Sequence record: NC_054932.1
DNA length: 64,000 bases
DNA from: Escherichia phage teqdroes
Reading direction: 5' to 3' (one strand)
The notes beneath the pieces are model-generated. The model had not been told where the DNA came from, searched no databases, and saw nothing but the letters and a program-made list of their open reading frames with translations. This document shows positions 3,730 through 62,915 of this stretch, piece by piece. Each line of letters starts with the position of its first letter. Within the stretch, counting starts at the first letter, position 1. The translations under genes and the position numbers were made by a program.

Positions 3730-5787
3730 ATGGAACTTATTACAGAATTATTTGACGGCGCTTCGGCGCCGGTTGTTAACTTAAATCCTAAGCATAAAAT
3801 ACCTCAAATTTTTGCTATTCAAGCCGGCGAAGAAAGTGTGCTTCCTGGATTTAGATTTTGTACATACACCTCTGGCGGTGATACAAATAAAAACGTTAAG
3901 CCGGGCGATAAAATGATGCATATCGTAATGATAGGTGTCAACGAGAAATTATCGCTGGTTAAGCTTAGAAACTTGGGTGGAAATCCAATTGGCGTCATTA
4001 ATGCTGTTTTTGATACTGCTCTTCAAACAATGAAACAGTATAAAATCGACGCATGCCTATTCCGCGTACTAAAGAGTAAAACAAATGGCGCAGCTCGTCA
4101 AATGCAAGTTATTGCTGACCGTTTAGTACGTACTAAAGGAGCAGGTCGATATGTTCTCTTAAAGGAAATCTGGGACTATGATAAGAAATATGCATATATT
4201 ATGGTTTACCGTAAAAATGCCAATTTAGAAGACATTCCAGGTGTACCTCCTATTTCAACTGAGTTATTCACAAAAGTTGAATCAAAGGTTGGTGATGTTT
4301 ATGTAGACGTTAAAACAGGTAATGCTGTTCCTAAAGCTGTTGCTGTTGCTGCTTCTATTGCTTTAGAAAATGATAAGCGCACGGATCAAGCTGTTATTCA
4401 GAAAACTAAAATTAGTCGTCGATTAGCAGCACAAGCTCAATATTCTACTGTTGATGCTTCACTTCAGGGTGATAGCTTCGCCGCTAAGAAATATCAAGAG
4501 TTTGAATCTAAAGTTCCGGTATATAAAGCAGAAGGACCAATGAACTCCGGGGTTATCCAGATTGGTTCAAACTTCGGCAAAGGAGCTATCGGTGGTATGA
4601 GAAGTGCTTCTCGTTTTAAATCTAGTGATTATGAACTAGAAAGCTTCCGAAATCATATTGCATTAGCCCATGCACGTTTACGTGATCCATCTATCAAGTT
4701 GCAGAGCGATATAACATATCAAGGTTCTCAAGAATATTTAAAGAATAAAGAATTCTTTGATTATAAAACTGATAAAATTTTAAGCGATCTTGCTGACATT
4801 AATATTTCTAATAGCTTTGATGTTATTAAGAAAATTATTAATGATTTAGTTAAAGGTTCTAAAGCTACGCCAGATGAAAAGACAGCTATTATTCAATTTG
4901 TCATGAATGGCATTTATAAATTGATTAATGAATCTGCTGCCCAGGCATATGAATACGCAAGCACCGAAGTAACTCCAAAAGGATTAACCCAAGCTGAATC
5001 TGATGTAATTGAAGATTATTGTGCAGATTCATATGTTGAAATGAACTCGTTCCTTTTGGGTAAACCAGATTCTACCCGTGAAGAATATATGGAACGAGCT
5101 ATTAAGCACATCGAGACGTTGGATTCTGCCTTTGCCAAAGGATCAGTTCTTCCTCCAGGAACTACACTTTACCGTGGACAAGAAGTTACCTTTAAAACTT
5201 TGCGTCATAACATTGAAAACAAAATGTTCTATTTCAAGAACTTCGTATCGACATCACTTAAACCAAATATCTTCGGTGAGCATGGTAAAAACTATATGGC
5301 TCTAGATGATTCCGGCGCAGTATTTTCTGGCGAAGGAGAAGGTTCCGTTGATGCAGAAGATTTAATGCATATGGGTAGTCATTCTACATATGCCATTGAA
5401 GATGCTGAAACTAGCGTGGGTATGGTAATTAAAGGAGCTGAGCGAATCAAAGTTATCGTTCCAGGTCATTTATCAGGATTTCCATCAGAAGCTGAAGTTA
5501 TTCTACCGCGTGGAATTTTACTGAAGATTAATAAAGTAAGTACGTACTTTATGAAAGAAACTGCTTATAACAAGTATCTAATCGAAGGTACAATCGTTCC
5601 TCCTTCTGAACAATTAGAAGAATCAGTATATGATGGCGACCATTTAATGGAAACTGGTGAAGTTCGTCCAATGGCTGGATTTAATCAATTCCTTGTAGAA
5701 GAATCAAAAGAAGAGGAAAACGAAGTTTCTCAAATCTTGGCTTCTTTGGTTAACATCAACGGAATGTCTAAAAAGTTCAAGATGTAG
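3730..5787 (+). CDS. Alt-type mono-ADP-ribosyltransferase, copy 2 (paralog)
   Basis: 685-aa ORF 3 nt after copy 1; same N-terminal 240 aa and same ART motifs (YRGQ, NFVSTSL, EAEVILPRG), divergent centre. Confidence 0.75.
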   Translation: MELITELFDGASAPVVNLNPKHKIPQIFAIQAGEESVLPGFRFCTYTSGGDTNKNVKPGDKMMHIVMIGVNEKLSLVKLRNLGGNPIGVINAVFDTALQTMKQYKIDACLFRVLKSKTNGAARQMQVIADRLVRTKGAGRYVLLKEIWDYDKKYAYIMVYRKNANLEDIPGVPPISTELFTKVESKVGDVYVDVKTGNAVPKAVAVAASIALENDKRTDQAVIQKTKISRRLAAQAQYSTVDASLQGDSFAAKKYQEFESKVPVYKAEGPMNSGVIQIGSNFGKGAIGGMRSASRFKSSDYELESFRNHIALAHARLRDPSIKLQSDITYQGSQEYLKNKEFFDYKTDKILSDLADINISNSFDVIKKIINDLVKGSKATPDEKTAIIQFVMNGIYKLINESAAQAYEYASTEVTPKGLTQAESDVIEDYCADSYVEMNSFLLGKPDSTREEYMERAIKHIETLDSAFAKGSVLPPGTTLYRGQEVTFKTLRHNIENKMFYFKNFVSTSLKPNIFGEHGKNYMALDDSGAVFSGEGEGSVDAEDLMHMGSHSTYAIEDAETSVGMVIKGAERIKVIVPGHLSGFPSEAEVILPRGILLKINKVSTYFMKETAYNKYLIEGTIVPPSEQLEESVYDGDHLMETGEVRPMAGFNQFLVEESKEEENEVSQILASLVNINGMSKKFKM

Positions 5788-7132: not shown

Positions 7133-8226
7133 TAAAAAGTCCCCGCATATAAAGAAGCACGGTTTAACGTGATAATTTCTCTCATAGTAATCTCAAGAGT
7201 AAATGTACTAGGGAGGTTTGGAGCAATAGCTAATCCGTTAAAGTTACCATTAGGTGTTTTATCAAATCTGATACTCTGGATTTGACATGGACCGAATATT
7301 TCCGTTTTTCCATCAAACTTAGATGTTGCACCAAAGTTTTTCACCATCCAAACTGTCGGGTTTGAAACTACTAGAACGTTAGTTAAACTCGATGTCATTT
7401 TCTCAAATAGTGTTTTATTTTTAGCTGCGTCTTCCGGAGATAAAGGTTCAATTAACGTAGAACGATACCAATCATCTAAATATCCCTTTATTTCAGCAGC
7501 ATATTGAGATTTACCCGTTTCACCATAAGAAAAATAGTTAAAATATTGATAGATATTAATAATAGCCATTAAATCTTCTGTTGAACGTGGAGTCAAATCC
7601 CATGTAAACACTTTAGTTCTATTTTCAGCACCACCATACATACTTCTGGCTGTCGTATAAATCTGTTCATTATTATCAGCCATTATACCTTGTGTTATAC
7701 TTTCCAGCGCCCCAAATACTGCGGTTGAAGCAATATTACTTAGCACACCAGTAGCAGTACCTCCGCCTCTACTGATGAGGCTTTCTTGAACATCATTAAA
7801 TCTATGTGATGATGTATCAACATCAGATTTAGATCTCGGTAAAAGAATATTTGCGATAGGAGATTTACTTATTGTTCCTGAATTATTATTTGATATTAAT
7901 CCATTTGATAGTTTTGATACTGTACTACTAATAGTGTTTCTAGCTGTACGTAAAATACTCGAAGATGAAGAAGAGTAGTTAGATCTCATCGATCTAAGAC
8001 TTCCAGAATCCCTAGATGACATATTGTATGCAGTAAATAATAATCCATTCTTATATAGATCTGTTACCTGGAAGTCCCCTGTAGTGTCATTACCACTAGC
8101 ACGCCCAGTTGGAAACTGGGCAGTGTATGTTTTAGTTCCTACTTCTGATTTAGTACTCTGTCCGGCTGAAATTTTCTCACCAGACTTTTTAATTAAATCA
8201 GCAGTTATTTCTTTAACAATTGCCAT
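7132..8226 (-). CDS. 48: baseplate tail-tube cap
   Basis: 364-aa ORF; length and order match T4 gp48. Confidence 0.85.
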   Translation of the reverse strand: MAIVKEITADLIKKSGEKISAGQSTKSEVGTKTYTAQFPTGRASGNDTTGDFQVTDLYKNGLLFTAYNMSSRDSGSLRSMRSNYSSSSSSILRTARNTISSTVSKLSNGLISNNNSGTISKSPIANILLPRSKSDVDTSSHRFNDVQESLISRGGGTATGVLSNIASTAVFGALESITQGIMADNNEQIYTTARSMYGGAENRTKVFTWDLTPRSTEDLMAIINIYQYFNYFSYGETGKSQYAAEIKGYLDDWYRSTLIEPLSPEDAAKNKTLFEKMTSSLTNVLVVSNPTVWMVKNFGATSKFDGKTEIFGPCQIQSIRFDKTPNGNFNGLAIAPNLPSTFTLEITMREIITLNRASLYAGTF

Positions 8227-8234
8227 ATTATTCC

Positions 8235-10007
8235 TTAATTAACTCCAGTCGCATCAAATACACCAGGAGCAGTCGTGCTCGTTACGGGTGTCATATTATG
8301 AACGACAGTATTTTTCTTAATAACATTATTAGTATTATTGATTGAAGGAGATGCTTGTTGAACAGGAGCTTGCTGTGCTTTGTTCTTTTCAATCACCTGG
8401 ACTTGTTTCGCTTCTGGTGATTTAGCAGAAGTTTCAGGTTTGGCATTAGGCTGATTTTTCTTGAGCTCTTGATAAGTAGCATCAATTTTAGAAAATCTAG
8501 CAGCAAGTTCTTTTTTAACTGCCGGTGAATTATTTAAATCCGGGTCATCCATCCGTTTTTTAAGGTCTTCATAGGCAGCTTCAACTGATTTAACCGTTGA
8601 GTCTTTACTCATATCAGCTGAATCAGCATATTTTTCAAAGCGAATCATTGCGGCACGGGCTTCATTAGCCTTCATTAAAGCATTTTTTCTTTCTTCAGGT
8701 GAAAGTTGCTTTAATTTTTCTTCTTCTGCCGCACGCTCTTCGTCGGTAGTTAGTGCTTCTTTATTATCAACCCCACGAATCCAATTAGATGCACGAGTTT
8801 TCCAATTAGCAATTTTATCTAATCCTTTTGCTATCGGACCAAGGTCTCCATTCATTCGTTTATCTTGATAATTTGCAACTTTTTCCTGGTCTTCTTTATT
8901 GAGAGATGCTCCAGTAGAATTTTGGAAATTTTCTAATGCTCTTCCTTCTACTTCATCAGCAGTATCCTTCATACCAGGAATGACTCGAAGAATTGCAGCA
9001 GATAATTTAGCCATACCTAATTGAATAAGTTCACCTAAATTAAAAAGAACACTTCCGAGTCCTTCAACAATAGCTGCTGTCAATCCACCCCAATCTCCCG
9101 CTTCCCAAAGTTGTTTAATTTTATCAATAGAATCAAAGATGCTCTGTAATAAAGGACCCCATGTTCCGGTTTCGCTAGAGAATTTAGTAAAGTCAGTATT
9201 AAATAAATCCCAGGCTTTTGAAAATTTATCTGACCAATATTTAAAATGAACCATCAGCAAGTCTATTCCAATAACAACAGCCAATATCATTGCAGTCATT
9301 TTAGCAGCTTCAATAGCAGCACTGATGGTGTACTTAAATAACATGCTTGATATTTTATCACTAATTGAAATGGATTTCTTAAATCCAAAATCAACTGTCT
9401 TTGTTAATTTATCTAAAGCTTGAGATAATTTTAAGTTAAATGCTTCTTTTTTCTGTTTTTCTTCTGGTGATTCTTGCTTTGGCTCAACTGGCTGAGGGGT
9501 AGGGAAAAAATCAGCGTCAGGATCATTATTAACTGCTTCGGGAGCCGGTAATAAAGGACCCACAGATTCAGCAGTATCATCCTCAACGACTTTAACAGGA
9601 ATAGCGCTTTCAACTGTAGCTAAACTAGTCCCAGTCTGTTGAATTCCAGCTGTCTGAATTTTTTGTTCTAATAAACTCGTTAATTTATCTAATTTGCTTC
9701 CGAGTGATTCACCGATTTCTTTATTAATATTGTTGCCAATTTCGACAGTTTCAGCAATTAACTCAGAACCGGCAGTAGTATCACTCACTGCGCTTTCTAC
9801 GTTACCAATTGCTCCAACTATTTCATTCGATTTTTCTTCGACAGTTTGAGCTATTAATTCAGAAGCAGCTTGAGTATCATCCAATTTCGTAGATATATCA
9901 TTAAGTCCAGATAAAGTGTTAGAAGCAGATTTAGCCGCTTCCTGTGTTGGTTTATTATCTGAAATAACTTTTCTACGCATCGTTTGCATTTCTTGTGGCT
10001 TTTTCAT
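8235..10007 (-). CDS. 29: baseplate hub subunit / tail length determinator
   Basis: 590-aa ORF; length and order match T4 gp29. Confidence 0.85.
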   Translation of the reverse strand: MKKPQEMQTMRRKVISDNKPTQEAAKSASNTLSGLNDISTKLDDTQAASELIAQTVEEKSNEIVGAIGNVESAVSDTTAGSELIAETVEIGNNINKEIGESLGSKLDKLTSLLEQKIQTAGIQQTGTSLATVESAIPVKVVEDDTAESVGPLLPAPEAVNNDPDADFFPTPQPVEPKQESPEEKQKKEAFNLKLSQALDKLTKTVDFGFKKSISISDKISSMLFKYTISAAIEAAKMTAMILAVVIGIDLLMVHFKYWSDKFSKAWDLFNTDFTKFSSETGTWGPLLQSIFDSIDKIKQLWEAGDWGGLTAAIVEGLGSVLFNLGELIQLGMAKLSAAILRVIPGMKDTADEVEGRALENFQNSTGASLNKEDQEKVANYQDKRMNGDLGPIAKGLDKIANWKTRASNWIRGVDNKEALTTDEERAAEEEKLKQLSPEERKNALMKANEARAAMIRFEKYADSADMSKDSTVKSVEAAYEDLKKRMDDPDLNNSPAVKKELAARFSKIDATYQELKKNQPNAKPETSAKSPEAKQVQVIEKNKAQQAPVQQASPSINNTNNVIKKNTVVHNMTPVTSTTAPGVFDATGVN

Positions 10008-58498: not shown

Positions 58499-58527
58499 GT
58501 TTACAATCTATTAAAACGTGATATTAT
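58499..58527 (+). promoter_or_regulatory. early promoter (GTTTAC, 17 bp, TATTAT)
   Basis: Extended -10 GTGATATTAT. Confidence 0.55.
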
Positions 58528-58554: not shown

Positions 58555-59148
58555 ATGAACACACTGAAGAAAATTGTTGAGTTTATTCGCACTAAACTTG
58601 GTTCTGCTATGGCTAAAAATCTATCTGTTGAAGAACAGTATACTGCTGCAGCAGCAAAACTACTTGATAAGATTAAAGATCTAAAAACTGCTTCTGTTAA
58701 ATCTATTAATGAAGAAAAGCGTATTCGTGAACTTATTGTCGAAAAGAATAAGCAGGCCGAATCAAAAGAGCGTGAAATTCGCAAGCTTCTTTCGGAAGGT
58801 CAAGATGTAACAATGCATGCTAAACTTGGTTTACTATATCGTCGAACAGCTGAGCAGTTGACTACTAAAGCTGATGGTTATGCTGAAATGCGAATTGAAA
58901 TCGCCAAGAAAGTAGTTGAGTTAGATGATGCTCGCCAAGAACTTGCAGTTAAATTGGAATATATCCGTGAAACTCGCGCCGCGAATGCCCTCGGAATTAG
59001 TACTGCCGATGATGTAGTTGAAATTGCAGCACTGACTAAGGTTGATATTGAAGATACTCTTGCTCGAGTTGAAACCTTTAATGGTAATATTTCTGGGGTT
59101 GAAACTACCTCTGCCGATGTTCAGGAATATATTAATTCTCTGAAATAA
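58555..59148 (+). CDS. hypothetical coiled-coil protein (197 aa)
   Basis: ORF behind early promoter; long heptad-like helices; UUCG hairpin downstream. Confidence 0.5.
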
Positions 59149-59154
59149 TGATAA

Positions 59155-59168
59155 GGGGCTTCGGCCCC
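59155..59168 (+). terminator. UUCG-tetraloop hairpin after coiled-coil ORF
   Basis: GGGGC-TTCG-GCCCC; no clear U-run, so possibly RNA stability/processing element. Confidence 0.35.
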
Positions 59169-59189
59169 TATTACTTGGAGTAAATAGGA

Positions 59190-59798
59190 ATGAAAATGCA
59201 AAGTGATTTCAATTCAATGTTTGAAGAATTCCAAAGACAAGTTGATGTTCCAGACCAATTATTAAATGCTCTTAAACGTATGGCAGAAGGACGTAATTAT
59301 TATTGGGGTTCTTCATATGAAACTGATGAAAGTCTTTCTGGAAGATTTTCTAGAGGTAAAAAGTCTTTAATACGTCCTGGAATACTTATTAACAGTATTG
59401 AATCAATTCATTCATTGACATGTGATTTTGATGTTGAATTTACTGATTTCATTTCTCCTGAATGGTCAGTTTGTTATTTAAACGACGATTTTGATTATCT
59501 CGGTGTTTATAGTTTAAGTGATGCATGGTTTAAACGTAATTTACAAAAGTCAAATTTATTTTATATTGATACTACTGTAAAATTTCGGGGCAAGAAATAT
59601 TTCTTTACTCTTATAGTTGATTCTGAAACTAAGCATGAAAATAAGCGTATTCTTAGTAAAAAGAATATCTTAACTATTGTTGATGATCTTTTTGATAAAT
59701 TCGTGGAAAATCCTAGTTTTGAAAGCGATTTATTACTAGAAAAATTTGTTAAGGAATGTAGAGAATATGTCAAAGCCATCAATGTATCTTCCAAGTAA
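59190..59798 (+). CDS. hypothetical protein (202 aa), C-terminal FVKECREY tail
   Basis: ORF with GGAG RBS; 3' end overlaps next gene start. Confidence 0.5.
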   Translation: MKMQSDFNSMFEEFQRQVDVPDQLLNALKRMAEGRNYYWGSSYETDESLSGRFSRGKKSLIRPGILINSIESIHSLTCDFDVEFTDFISPEWSVCYLNDDFDYLGVYSLSDAWFKRNLQKSNLFYIDTTVKFRGKKYFFTLIVDSETKHENKRILSKKNILTIVDDLFDKFVENPSFESDLLLEKFVKECREYVKAINVSSK

Positions 59799-60159
59799 AC
59801 CCTTAAAGTATGAATTAAAGCGCCAGCTAATTTCTACTGATGTATTAATAGGTCCTGTAATAGCTGTATCATTTGTAATTCTACTGGGGGTTGGAATAGT
59901 TATAGATGTTATGACTGATATTGAATCTAATATAATATTTGCGTCAACATTAATTCTTCCAATGATAGTTCCATTTTTATTAATACCTGTAAATTGGGTA
60001 GGATACTGGTATCAAGGAAGGCATTATCGTAAACGCGTACGTGATTGGAAAGCACAGTGTAAAAAGATTAAAAAGGAACATCAGCTTAAACTTGCTGCGT
60101 ATGAATTTGATGAAATTATGAAATTTGTTAAGGAATCACGATGCAAAAGCCAAAACTAA
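59767..60159 (+). CDS. small 2-TM membrane protein, C-terminal FVKESRCK tail
   Basis: ATG at 59767 with AAGGAA RBS (ORF track starts at upstream TTG); two hydrophobic helices. Confidence 0.5.
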   Translation: MSKPSMYLPSKPLKYELKRQLISTDVLIGPVIAVSFVILLGVGIVIDVMTDIESNIIFASTLILPMIVPFLLIPVNWVGYWYQGRHYRKRVRDWKAQCKKIKKEHQLKLAAYEFDEIMKFVKESRCKSQN

Positions 60160-60503
60160 ATAAAGTCAAATATTCGCTTCCTGAGTCATTTTTAATTTTT
60201 GCTGTGGCGTTGGCTGCAGCTCTTGCGGGTAGTCTTTTTGGATTGTTAATTGACTGTCTTATTTTAAACATTGACGGCACAGTAAATATAATAGAAGTTT
60301 GGAGTGAACTTCACTATACTAAAATTATTTCATTATTTTCATTCTTTGGTACCATGTTATATTTTCATTATGATAATTTTAAAATAAATTGGCAAAGAAA
60401 AAAAGATTACAAAATACAATTAAAGGAATATAATAGCTACATGTCTTATATTGAAAAAGAATCAATGGAAGAGTTTGTGAGTGATTGCAGGAAAATCAAA
60501 TGA
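60141..60503 (+). CDS. small 2-TM membrane protein, C-terminal FVSDCRKIK tail
   Basis: ATG 60141 with AAGGAA RBS embedded in upstream gene; two hydrophobic helices. Confidence 0.5.
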   Translation: MQKPKLNKVKYSLPESFLIFAVALAAALAGSLFGLLIDCLILNIDGTVNIIEVWSELHYTKIISLFSFFGTMLYFHYDNFKINWQRKKDYKIQLKEYNSYMSYIEKESMEEFVSDCRKIK

Positions 60504-60988
60504 TTTTAAAAACTCGCTGGTATGATTTAGATGACGGGGATGATGGCATTTCAGTTGATAGAGTTGACTGGAATGGCTGTTCCGAAGATATGAAAAATTT
60601 GCTGATTAGGGAGTTTAGAATGGGATATCAACCAGTTAAGCCATCTACTGCAACAGATGATAAATTCGTGTGTATTCATAATGGTCGCGCTAAATTAACG
60701 AACGCTGATTGGTTCACAGATAAAATTATGATTCTGTGGTACATTATTAGTTTTCCTGTGACATCATTTGTATTTTGCTTCTTTGGAGAAAGTCCAGTAG
60801 ACAGAACGGGAGATTGGATTATTTTAACCATACTTGTTAATATTTTTACAGCAGCAATACTATCTGGGATATGGTACACGTTCATTGAAATGCCATGGCG
60901 TTTACGCAGACAACAAAAGATTTTTGATGAAAAGAAATATACCCAAAATTTAAATAGCTTTATCACTGAATGCAGGAAATTAAAATGA
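60500..60988 (+). CDS. small 2-TM membrane protein, C-terminal FITECRKLK tail
   Basis: ATG 60500 in ATGA overlap with upstream stop (ORF track starts at TTG 60485); AGGAAA RBS. Confidence 0.5.
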   Translation: MILKTRWYDLDDGDDGISVDRVDWNGCSEDMKNLLIREFRMGYQPVKPSTATDDKFVCIHNGRAKLTNADWFTDKIMILWYIISFPVTSFVFCFFGESPVDRTGDWIILTILVNIFTAAILSGIWYTFIEMPWRLRRQQKIFDEKKYTQNLNSFITECRKLK

Positions 60989-61425
60989 AAACATTATCAG
61001 CTGGTATTATCTTTATGACAGAAGATAAAGATTTATTTATGGGTCGGGTTACTGGTTCTCGTAAGCCTGGAATGATGGCACATCGCTGGGATATTCCAAA
61101 AGGTCGTGTAGAATGTTCTGATTTGAGCGCATTAGATGCAGCACGAAGAGAATGTTTAGAAGAGACCGGTTTTAGCAATTATAATCCAGACCTTCTAGAA
61201 GACCTAGGTGTATTTAAATATTCTAGTAATAAAGACTTACAGTTATTTTATTATACGATTCCAGTAGAGCATGAGATGTTCAGAAATTGCCATTGCGAGT
61301 CTTATTTTGAAAATAAAGATGGCGTTATGATTCCAGAGATGGACGCTTTTGCTCTTATTCCTCGTACTCAGTGGCAATATGTGATGGGTCCTTCACTTTA
61401 CCGAATAATGAACAACCTCTTTTAA
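60970..61425 (+). CDS. nudE: Nudix hydrolase
   Basis: Nudix box (GRVECSDLSALDAARRECLEETGF); directly upstream of e as in T4; start may be ATG 60985 in ATGA overlap. Confidence 0.8.
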   Translation: MQEIKMKTLSAGIIFMTEDKDLFMGRVTGSRKPGMMAHRWDIPKGRVECSDLSALDAARRECLEETGFSNYNPDLLEDLGVFKYSSNKDLQLFYYTIPVEHEMFRNCHCESYFENKDGVMIPEMDAFALIPRTQWQYVMGPSLYRIMNNLF

Positions 61426-61956
<531 letters not shown>

Positions 61957-61960
61957 AGTT

Positions 61961-61990
61961 GTTTACTTTCTCCTAGAATTGTGATAGTAT
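61961..61990 (+). promoter_or_regulatory. early promoter for denV
   Basis: GTTTAC, 18 bp, TAGTAT with GTGA extension. Confidence 0.5.
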
Positions 61991-62015
61991 ATTCACAGTT
62001 ACTTGGAGGGATAAA

Positions 62016-62432
62016 ATGACTCGTATTAATTTGACTTTAGTATCTGAACTTGCTGATCAACATTTAATCGCAGAATACCGTGAATTGCCGCGTGTTTTTG
62101 GTATAGTTCGTAAGCATGTGGCAAACGGTAAGCGCGTTAAAGATTTTAAAATATCTTCTAAATTTATTTTAGGTTCTGGTCATGTTACTTTCTTTTACGA
62201 TAAGTTAGAATTTTTGCGAAAGCGTCAATCGGACATTATAACGGAATGCTTAAAACGCGGGTTCAGTATAAAAGATACTGAAGTTCCTGACATCAGCGAT
62301 ATTCCAGTAGAATGGAAAAATGATTATAATCCATGCAAATCAGCTATTAAATTGAGTCAACAACGACTTGATGAAAAAATTTTAATGAAACCACATTGGT
62401 ATAAGTATTACGGTAAAAATATTTACATTTAA
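62016..62432 (+). CDS. denV: endonuclease V (pyrimidine dimer DNA glycosylase)
   Basis: 138-aa [20 protein letters not shown]; matches T4 endoV as I recall it. Confidence 0.9.
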
Positions 62433-62441
62433 AGGAAACAT

Positions 62442-62915
62442 ATGAAAACATATCAAGAATTTATCACTGAAGCAGCTATTAATTCTCAAATTATTGCTGA
62501 ATCTTTTACTGATCTTTTGAAATTTAAAAAAGGTCAAAAAATCACTGCTGTATTGGATGATGGTACAGAAGTTGAGATGGATGTACAGGGATATAATTAT
62601 GCAGTAGATGGAAAACTGTATAATAAATCTCATGCTAAATTTGATTCATTTGACGACTTTGTTAATACAGTTGAAGATGAAAAAACTCGTAGATCCATTG
62701 CAACTGGTGATGCTAAGGTTCTTATGGCACATGGTCATGAACGCATTCGCGCTAAACAGAATAAAATGGGTGAAGATAATTTTGCATTAGTTGGTTATCA
62801 ATCTGGTAAACAAACTTATGGCTATCAACGTACTGCTACCATGTATAACAAAAATGGTAAAATTGCCTTTGTGAATAGTAAAGGTTCTATTCAGTACGTT
62901 AAATCGTTCAAATAA
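62442..62915 (+). CDS. internal-protein-like protein with CTS (157 aa)
   Basis: N-terminus MKTYQEFITEA, a near-consensus capsid-targeting sequence. Confidence 0.55.
   Translation: MKTYQEFITEAAINSQIIAESFTDLLKFKKGQKITAVLDDGTEVEMDVQGYNYAVDGKLYNKSHAKFDSFDDFVNTVEDEKTRRSIATGDAKVLMAHGHERIRAKQNKMGEDNFALVGYQSGKQTYGYQRTATMYNKNGKIAFVNSKGSIQYVKSFK

Follow-up and report, generated by a model that had tools for sequence, protein, structure and literature searches.

The e.5 to e.2 genes and their common tail

The stretch of DNA analysed here (hereafter the window) comprises 64,000 nucleotides (nt) of Escherichia phage teqdroes (sequence record NC_054932.1) and is a segment of a Tequatrovirus genome; the subject of this study is a run of four overlapping open reading frames (ORFs) within it that end in related C-terminal tails (Table 1). 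These four ORFs, all on the + strand, are the annotated genes e.5, e.4, e.3, and e.2 of phages RB3, T4, and PP01, in which e.6 precedes the four genes and nudE (e.1) and then the lysozyme gene e follow them. Bases 59000 to 61500 match 512 phage records, the best match being Escherichia phage vB_EcoM_KAW1E185 (98.4%; hereafter KAW1E185), and the DNA of e.5 to e.2 is 91.7% identical to that of T4 over the whole feature and about 98% identical to that of KAW1E185. Gene order, gene overlaps, and tails are as in T4, where e.5, e.4, e.3, and e.2 are the same genes (UniProt P39223, P39222, P32274, and P32273, respectively) and where e.2, e.3, and e.4 are already labelled as "predicted membrane protein"; by contrast, e.2 is intact in the window and frameshift-truncated to 102 amino acids (aa) in T4.

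In T4, e.5 to e.2 give rise to early RNA and have an assigned protein-expression time class (PMC9697503, supplements), and knockdown of each of e.2 to e.6 and of nudE was scored "Not Fit", i.e., without a laboratory fitness effect (PMC11879866, supplement 15). The genes e.5 to e.2 are thus genuine and already on record, but they are uncharacterised and can be dispensed with in laboratory culture. End to end, their products fall into four different PHROGs to which no function is attached, with full-length matches for e.5 (PHROG 2607, E = 4.7e-108), e.4 (PHROG 2604, E = 1.8e-69 over residues 1-130), e.3 (PHROG 2330, E = 2.2e-60), and e.2 (PHROG 2203, E = 2.6e-79); family databases therefore split the four proteins. 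Precomputed Pfam annotations of close homologues, which lie outside the Pfam-A set that was scanned, assign PF26873 to e.4 and PF26896 to e.2, and scans of Pfam, NCBIfam, and PADLOC gave no usable match for any of the four. For e.5, an e.5-type profile found no match in the Protein Data Bank (PDB), and an AF2 model built from the single sequence was of low confidence (pLDDT 36.7). Public labels attached to e.3 and e.4 ("sulfurtransferase", "DNA primase") and to e.6 ("host specificity protein") were considered and set aside, being backed by no profile search.

All four proteins carry related tails near their C-termini, which read EKFVKECREYVKAINVSSK in e.5, MKFVKESRCKSQN in e.4, EEFVSDCRKIK in e.3, and NSFITECRKLK in e.2. 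The common motif can be written as Φ(-3)-x-x-[FY](0)-[IV](+1)-x-x-C(+4)-R(+5)-(basic), with Ser in place of Cys in e.4. Of 27 tails, 93% have a hydrophobic residue at -3, all have Phe or Tyr at 0 and Ile or Val at +1, 81% have Cys at +4 (the others Val, Ser, or Ile), and 96% have Arg at +5, a spacing that corresponds to a predicted amphipathic helix. The tails are related at the protein level, as proposed in the first-pass annotation, and the motif goes well beyond what chance would produce. When ORFs were taken as stop-to-stop segments of at least 40 aa, exactly four of the 497 segments of the window, namely these four, had [FYW][IVL]..[CS]R or the shifted [FYW][IVL]...RC in their last 25 residues, and the strict form [FY][IV]..C[RK] was confined to e.5, e.3, and e.2, apart from one unrelated match in thymidine kinase, among 1404 segments of the window and the remainder of the nearest complete genome, KAW1E185. 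A position matrix derived from 25 tails, which were drawn from several genera, scored the four tails at 27.5, 25.6, 22.0, and 21.5 bits and the next best ORF of the genome at 9.7 bits. Searches of the literature with the motif strings found no description of a shared tail; it is this tail that is new here, the genes, the membrane prediction, and the link of e.6 to PspA (see below) being already known.

The tail of e.4 departs from the others at one position. At +4 e.4 has Ser, and its orthologues in other genera have Ile or Val (tails FVKEIR, FIKEVR, and FIRNVR); since +4 is Ser, Ile, or Val across the e.4 family, the Cys found two residues on, in SRCK, is not the motif Cys. An FVxECRK-like Cys-Arg tail, initially ascribed to all four proteins, is thus a property of e.5, e.3, and e.2, and e.4 aligns with it through Ser.

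The bodies that carry the tail differ. Kyte-Doolittle hydropathy gave two clear hydrophobic segments each in e.4 and e.2, one strong and one borderline segment (IISLFSFFGTMLYFH, KD15 = 1.5) in e.3, and none in e.5, and a Lys/Arg-rich stretch follows the membrane segments in e.4, e.3, and e.2. The earlier proposal that three of the genes encode two transmembrane (TM) helices followed by a basic stretch is therefore clear for e.4 and e.2 and borderline for e.3 with regard to its second segment. Because the N- and C-termini are rich in Lys and Arg and the loops between the TM segments are acidic, the tails are predicted, by the positive-inside rule, to be cytoplasmic.

Whether the four genes form a tandem family by real paralogy, as had also been claimed, depends on which part of the proteins is compared. 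Profile-profile alignment (hhalign) linked e.4 and e.3 with 87.8% probability over 40 C-terminal columns and e.3 and e.2 with 76% over 18 columns; e.5 aligned with e.3 and e.2 over only 12 to 17 tail columns, and no tail alignment was found between e.4 and e.5. After removal of the tails hhalign found nothing significant (best 37.6%, over 18 N-terminal columns of e.4 and e.3), and single-sequence phmmer among the four proteins gave no significant pairwise similarity (E >= 1). The architecture of two TM segments, basic stretch, and tail holds for e.4 and e.2, is borderline for e.3, and fails for e.5. Paralogy is supported in part only: relatedness is seen for the tail in all four proteins and for e.4 and e.3 over 40 columns, and for e.2 and e.5 it was not detected beyond the tail. 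To judge from these alignments, the shared entity is a C-terminal module of about 10 to 18 residues set on different bodies, and not a whole-protein fold.

Table 1. Features of the e.6 to nudE region; positions are counted from the first base of the window.
Feature	Positions	Strand	Description
Sigma-70-type early promoter-like site	58500..58527	+	TTTACA-16-TATTAT with TG; upstream of e.6; consensus scan
e.6	58555..59148	+	PspA/Vipp1 (IM30, ESCRT-III superfamily) homologue (profile, Pfam, AF2/Foldseek); heads the block
Hairpin, e.6/e.5 gap	59154..59169	+	GGGGC-UUCG-GCCCC; sequence and scan; "putative stem_loop" in T4 record L13089
e.5	59190..59798	+	Soluble, 202 aa; alternative start 59196; PHROG 2607; 11 residues after motif
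e.5 tail motif	59745..59762	+	FVKECR (TTT GTT AAG GAA TGT AGA); AAGGAA is Shine-Dalgarno-like for e.4
e.4	59767..60159	+	130 aa; two predicted TM segments (~24-46, ~56-80); PHROG 2604; precomputed PF26873; 32-nt overlap with e.5
e.4 tail motif	60124..60141	+	FVKESR (TTT GTT AAG GAA TCA CGA); final base is the A of the e.3 ATG
e.3	60141..60503	+	120-aa predicted membrane protein; TM1 ~15-42, borderline TM2 ~62-77; PHROG 2330; 19-nt overlap with e.4
e.3 tail motif	60474..60491	+	FVSDCR (TTT GTG AGT GAT TGC AGG), then AAA ATC AAA TGA; AGGAAA is Shine-Dalgarno-like for e.2
e.2	60500..60988	+	162 aa; 75-aa N-terminal soluble part, predicted TM ~76-96 and ~106-129, tail; PHROG 2203; precomputed PF26896
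e.2 tail motif	60959..60976	+	FITECR (TTT ATC ACT GAA TGC AGG), then AAA TTA AAA TGA; AGGAAA is Shine-Dalgarno-like for nudE
nudE (e.1)	60985..61425	+	Nudix hydrolase; closes the packed run; Pfam NUDIX 2.2e-13; PHROG 1185; annotated in RB3 and PP01

Coding constraint, gene layout, and turnover

Successive genes of the run overlap by 32 (e.5/e.4), 19 (e.4/e.3), 4 (e.3/e.2), and 4 nt (e.2/nudE). The Shine-Dalgarno (SD)-like sequence AAGGAA lies 10 nt before the ATG of e.4 and 5 nt before that of e.3, and AGGAAA lies 5 nt before the ATGs of e.2 and nudE, both of which junctions are ATGA overlaps; coordinates, tails, SD-like sequences, and ATGA overlaps agree with those first described. In the T4 record (L13089) a promoter is annotated upstream of msp3 (= e.6) and none between e.6 and nudE, and no strong promoter was found between e.6 and the block. 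The hairpin between e.6 and e.5 is a perfect stem closed by a UUCG tetraloop without a T-run after it on the + strand; its appearance suggests a role in RNA stability or processing and not in termination. The run e.6-e.5-e.4-e.3-e.2-nudE is probably translationally coupled. One IMG/VR Tequatrovirus contig (L006, 7636-8251), which is also without e.2, has e.5 split into overlapping ORFs of 145 and 92 aa, reflecting either a frameshift or a sequencing error.

With the SD of the next gene lying within every tail of the window, the motif might be a mere by-product of nucleic-acid constraint, i.e., of the SD and spacer of the following gene together with microhomology for cassette recombination, the encoded peptide having no function. 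This explanation would also account for the 16 identical nt (AAATTTGTTAAGGAAT) common to e.5/e.4 and e.4/e.3, for the identity of TGCAGGAAA between e.3 and e.2, for the finding that the joint of the e.2 deletion or insertion in PP01 falls exactly in this second repeat, and for the tendency of the motif in e.5 and e.4 to track the downstream ATG and not the stop codon of its own gene. By contrast, the codons used at 21 gene junctions from five lineages (four genera) are too varied for it: the Arg position is encoded by AGA, AGG, CGA, CGG, CGT, and CGC (plus two cases of Lys AAA), the motif Cys by both TGT and TGC, position 0 by both Phe and both Tyr codons, and position +1 by GTT, GTG, ATT, and ATC. 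The SD itself moves between codons +2/+3 (AAGGAA, GAGGAA) and codons +5/+6 (AGGAAA, GAGG, GGAG), and in e.5 of Dhakavirus it lies outside the motif, 12 to 20 nt past it, with FI(K/T)ECREY kept. The use of every Arg codon and of both Cys codons, together with an SD that shifts or lies outside, shows that the motif is selected as a peptide; the persistence of Cys-Arg whichever codons hold the SD, noted initially for the window, extends to these 21 junctions. Moreover, the hydrophobic residue at -3 and the F/I pair are conserved upstream of any SD, and conservation runs about 40 residues further upstream in e.4 and e.2. Among Tequatrovirus phages, the cytoplasmic C-terminal domains of e.4, e.3, and e.2 are nearly invariant (almost so over the last 50 residues of e.4), with conservation that reaches far upstream of the overlapped bases, and the TM segments vary. 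Dual coding is real but secondary, and it is not what keeps the motif; constraint at the nucleic-acid level only is largely refuted by the codon data, and we consider it very improbable as the full explanation.

The membrane members of the block turn over in a modular fashion. PP01-type phages are without exactly e.2, and since the joint (PP01 2780-2815 versus window 60470-60503 and 60955-60988) lies inside TGCAGGAAA, which the e.3 and e.2 tails have in common, PP01 e.3 ends in CRKLK; the coding repeat in the tails thus also serves for recombination. In T4 and some relatives (P0192 and P0193; e.g., Yersinia phage fPS-2), the frameshift that shortens e.2 lies in an A-run; in T4 (L13089 2927-3414) the downstream frame for TM2 and FITECRKLK is intact and conserved, has an internal ATG (MDRIGDW...), and may still be expressed. 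Phage UFV05 (4210-4530; P0098) carries a natural in-frame e.4(1-31)::e.2(C-terminal) chimera, whose junction is a TCCTGT microhomology within TM1. The remainder of e.4, the whole of e.3, and the N-domain of e.2 are lost in this chimera, which keeps two TM segments and the tail and occurs on 5 contigs. The loss of e.2 in PP01, the T4 frameshift, and the UFV05 chimera indicate that the membrane members are individually expendable and interchangeable. Both the joint for presence or absence of e.2 in the 9-nt repeat of the e.3 and e.2 tails and the junction of the chimera at TCCTGT resemble the shuffling of T4-type hyperplastic regions, with the difference that here the repeat is coding and selected as peptide, whereas there it is an intergenic promoter/stem-loop cassette. 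The region downstream of e is also variable: in the window (61462-62915) denV (62016-62432) follows directly after lysozyme gene e and is itself followed by a 157-aa ORF, and in RB3 and PP01 internal-protein genes (Ip4, Ip10) follow e.

Distribution of the motif in Straboviridae

Other genera were sampled by tblastn and from annotated records, and the sampled Straboviridae lineages all bear e.6. In every one of these lineages the motif was found in the block downstream of e.6 (from e.6 to nudE where nudE was seen), and the gene directly after e.6 was motif-bearing. Besides the e.5, e.4, e.3, and e.2 tails of Tequatrovirus, the tails (with "-stop" where the sequence runs to the stop codon) were FIMECREY, FVKEIRCK, FIKECRK-stop, and, in a further two-TM protein, FIKECRGK-stop in Mosigvirus (Mizar); FI(K/T)ECREY, FIKEVR, FIKECKS-stop, and FIEECRK-stop in Dhakavirus (QL01 and L008); FIKYCRERVQK-stop, FIKEVRRK-stop, and FIAKCRAK-stop in Klebsiella phage RCIP0102; and FVEQCR, FIRNVRRK-stop, FIQMCRR, and FIKGCRNGRN-stop in Kanagawavirus (PEi20). 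Six of seven tandem genes carried the motif in Gualtarvirus (Rgz1), with the tails YIKHCRGE-stop, YIKQCRGKK-stop, FVDKCRGKK-stop, FVDECRRRL-stop, FVDECRRRQNEN-stop, and YVKHCRGK-stop. Biquartavirus (avDM10 and phage 31) had F(I/V)DYCRR, and Pseudotevenvirus had a variant, FIHSCKK, located 25 (leB) or 31 (RB43) residues from the C-terminus. Outside this family, an Ackermannviridae phage with a PspA-like gene was found to be without motif-bearing neighbours of that gene.

Orthologues of e.5 lie directly after e.6 in Mosigvirus, Dhakavirus, the Klebsiella phage, Kanagawavirus, and Biquartavirus. Soluble proteins encoded in this position make up an orthologous chain of their own, which is fast-evolving and links Tequatrovirus, Kanagawavirus, Klebsiella, Dhakavirus, and Biquartavirus; in seven such proteins the only invariant columns are M1 and the F, E, C, and R of the motif.

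The motif also occurs near the C-terminus of small soluble proteins unrelated to e.5, in RCIP0102 (8886-9194) and in PEi20 (8853-9143). These carriers have MFIAKCRAK-stop, at the very end, or AFIQMCRRNQNVSS-stop, with seven residues after the motif, and one of them is encoded past nudE, so that the module extends beyond the e.5 to e.2 families. A second tandem family of 3 to 5 small soluble proteins is inserted in the blocks of Mosigvirus, Dhakavirus, and Kanagawavirus (L002 4569-5363, L008 8862-10112, and L020 [PEi20] 7716-9330) and absent from the window; its members have C-termini of the form W-[VIFY]-x-S-S-x-x-C followed by the stop codon (GAWVSSSALC-stop, GGWVASSHTC-stop, KIWYPSSC-stop).

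The PspA/Vipp1 homologue e.6 and possible roles of the tail

With regard to e.6, a phmmer search with the window protein against 1.84 billion representatives returned a compact family of 36 representatives, in which complete members have about 195 to 209 aa and one quarter of the entries consists of chimeric assemblies or shorter fragments. A 28-sequence e.6 profile matched Vipp1 or PspA in all of its top 8 PDB hits (best 8e-5, colinear over residues 1-140), and Pfam family PF04012 (PspA_IM30) was matched by four of the 28 family members (best 8.9e-10); in the Pfam-A hmmscan the window e.6 alone fell below threshold for PF04012. The AF2 model of e.6 (pLDDT 83.9) has predicted helices at residues 2-22, 25-80, and 86-145, i.e., an N-terminal helix and a long hairpin, and its top 10 Foldseek matches in the PDB were all Vipp1 or PspA, followed by archaeal CdvB. 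An HHpred link to PspA is already in the literature for the homologue in Klebsiella phage Metamorpho (PMC7862958). Profile and model evidence agree in identifying e.6 as a divergent PspA/Vipp1 homologue (IM30, ESCRT-III superfamily). Over 1000 phage records show conservation of the gene, among them those of Aeromonas, Klebsiella, Cronobacter, and Edwardsiella phages, and a weaker relative occurs in Ackermannviridae.

We tentatively favour the reading that the shared tail is a docking helix, which most plausibly ties e.5 to e.2 to e.6 at the inner membrane; docking itself, as well as e.6 as the partner, we infer from synteny, predicted topology, and the anatomy of the motif. Each of the four early accessory proteins bears the same modular C-terminal amphipathic helix, predicted to be cytoplasmic and carried either by a two-TM hairpin anchor (e.4, e.3, and e.2) or by a soluble domain (e.5), and in the overlapped run the codons of the helix also hold the ribosome-binding site of the next gene. 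Under this reading the helix would act as a docking tag for one common partner, the likeliest candidate being e.6, the PspA/Vipp1-type membrane-maintenance protein that heads the run, and e.4, e.3, and e.2 would serve as redundant, interchangeable inner-membrane anchors or adaptors for it, in the manner of PspB/PspC with PspA and of LiaI with LiaH. As expected of partners of the PspB/PspC/LiaI type, the membrane members are encoded beside a PspA homologue and have predicted inner-membrane segments. The apparent redundancy of these members (e.2 absent or frameshifted, the chimera, no effect of knockdown) fits interchangeable adaptors. The C-terminal helix of e.6 itself, which has a nearly invariant Tyr, fits a relaxed tail pattern that was defined post hoc and that 8 genome ORFs carry at their C-termini, 5 of them being the consecutive genes e.6 to e.2; this may be a weak pointer to a link with e.6. 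The idea that the tail is a strict copy of the e.6 C-terminus was dropped, as the strict matrix misses e.6 and only the post hoc relaxed pattern fits.

Several points weigh against docking on e.6. The e.4-type proteins have no motif Cys, and Cys is therefore not universally required; the PspA-like gene of the Ackermannviridae phage stands without motif neighbours, so that a phage PspA homologue needs no such partners; and nudE at the end of the run, together with the extra gene families in other genera, makes the block functionally mixed. In addition, the strict tail matrix, applied to whole-genome ORFs, does not rank the e.6 C-terminus, hmmscan against Pfam-A (E <= 1) found no match of e.4, e.3, or e.2 to the PspB, PspC, or LiaI families, and the synteny with e.6 could reflect no more than membership of one early transcription unit where the genome is plastic.

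Two other functions of the peptide have to be weighed. Small early proteins with two TM segments, such as T4 Imm, act in exclusion, and e.5 to e.2 might likewise, in line with the role suggested in the first-pass annotation, be independent superinfection-exclusion or anti-defence factors, whose tail binds a target of the host or of a competitor and not e.6. Like Imm and Sp of T4, the proteins encoded by these genes (e.5 excepted) are small, early, dispensable membrane proteins of T-even phages, and the genes are variable in number; their TM segments vary much faster than the tails, as an arms race would predict; and the region that holds them is plastic and also encodes, beside them, a Nudix hydrolase of the type proposed to counter ADP-ribose (ADPr)-based immunity (PMC9503650). 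Unlike Imm and Sp, they carry a tail that, by prediction, lies in the cytoplasm, remote from incoming DNA and from periplasmic targets, and that occurs on soluble, e.5-type proteins as well. The close packing of the block behind e.6 also points to another role. Homology lends this explanation no support: phmmer of the four proteins against ORFs of at least 40 aa from the window and the rest of KAW1E185 gave a best non-self E of 0.059 and no homology to Imm or Sp, and PADLOC models gave no match for e.6, e.5, e.4, e.3, or e.2 at E <= 0.1. A suggestive match of e.4 to the family of Bfi1 immunity proteins (E = 0.0019, with a score of 18 bits where the cut-off is 100) failed to hold, being found for only two of nine diverse orthologues, and was discarded as an effect of TM composition. 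We regard exclusion or anti-defence as rather unlikely to be what the tail is for.

Alternatively, the tails might bind each other, so that e.5, e.4, e.3, and e.2 would form a hetero-oligomeric membrane complex by coiled-coil bundling, possibly with their Cys residues sharing a metal or a disulfide. Adjacent, overlapped genes favour co-assembly, there is one conserved Cys per chain, and hydrophobic residues recur at -3, 0/+1, and +4 in a heptad-like manner, with weaker periodicity at -12, -15, and -19. The number of members, by contrast, varies from one (Biquartavirus) to six (Gualtarvirus), members are lost singly, and e.4-type proteins are without the Cys; an obligate stoichiometric complex does not fit this variable copy number, the single losses, and the Cys-less e.4-type proteins, and mutual assembly appears unlikely.

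If the docking reading is extended, T4-like phages would own a complete "phage-shock-like" module, in which adaptors of varying number (one soluble, several with two TM segments) dock onto e.6 via ΦxxF[IV]xxCR and thereby recruit e.6 to the inner membrane, or switch its polymerisation there, during infection; within such a module the adaptors might imitate the C-terminal helix of e.6 and compete for the same hairpin groove. This wider proposal is speculative, and we hold it to be doubtful. T4 is the best-studied large lytic phage, yet e.2 to e.6 are without an assigned function, and one short peptide on up to six dissimilar proteins beside a PspA/Vipp1 homologue offers a concrete and cheap experimental handle. 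Should the tail dock on e.6, it would represent a viral version of the PspA-adaptor principle and a minimal recognition peptide of the ESCRT-III type; should it dock elsewhere, it would be a ready-made bait for the target of a set of "hypothetical" phage proteins. In either case the locus is a clean example of a ribosome-binding site that slides along a selected peptide motif.

Among known systems, two offer a comparison with the proposed docking of e.5 to e.2 on e.6. In Bacillus subtilis, LiaI is a small membrane anchor for the PspA homologue LiaH and is encoded in the same operon; the likeness is one of analogy only, as no relation in sequence was detected and Lia proteins are not known to have an FIxxCR tail. 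With regard to PspA and PspB/PspC of E. coli and Yersinia, the phage locus differs in that the partners lie downstream, are several in number, include a soluble one, and come without a PspF-type regulator, and in that binding to e.6 is putative. The likeness is that in both cases a gene of the PspA family adjoins genes for small inner-membrane proteins with cytoplasmic, amphipathic C-terminal segments, and in Yersinia PspC it is the C-terminal amphipathic region that has been reported to bind PspA.

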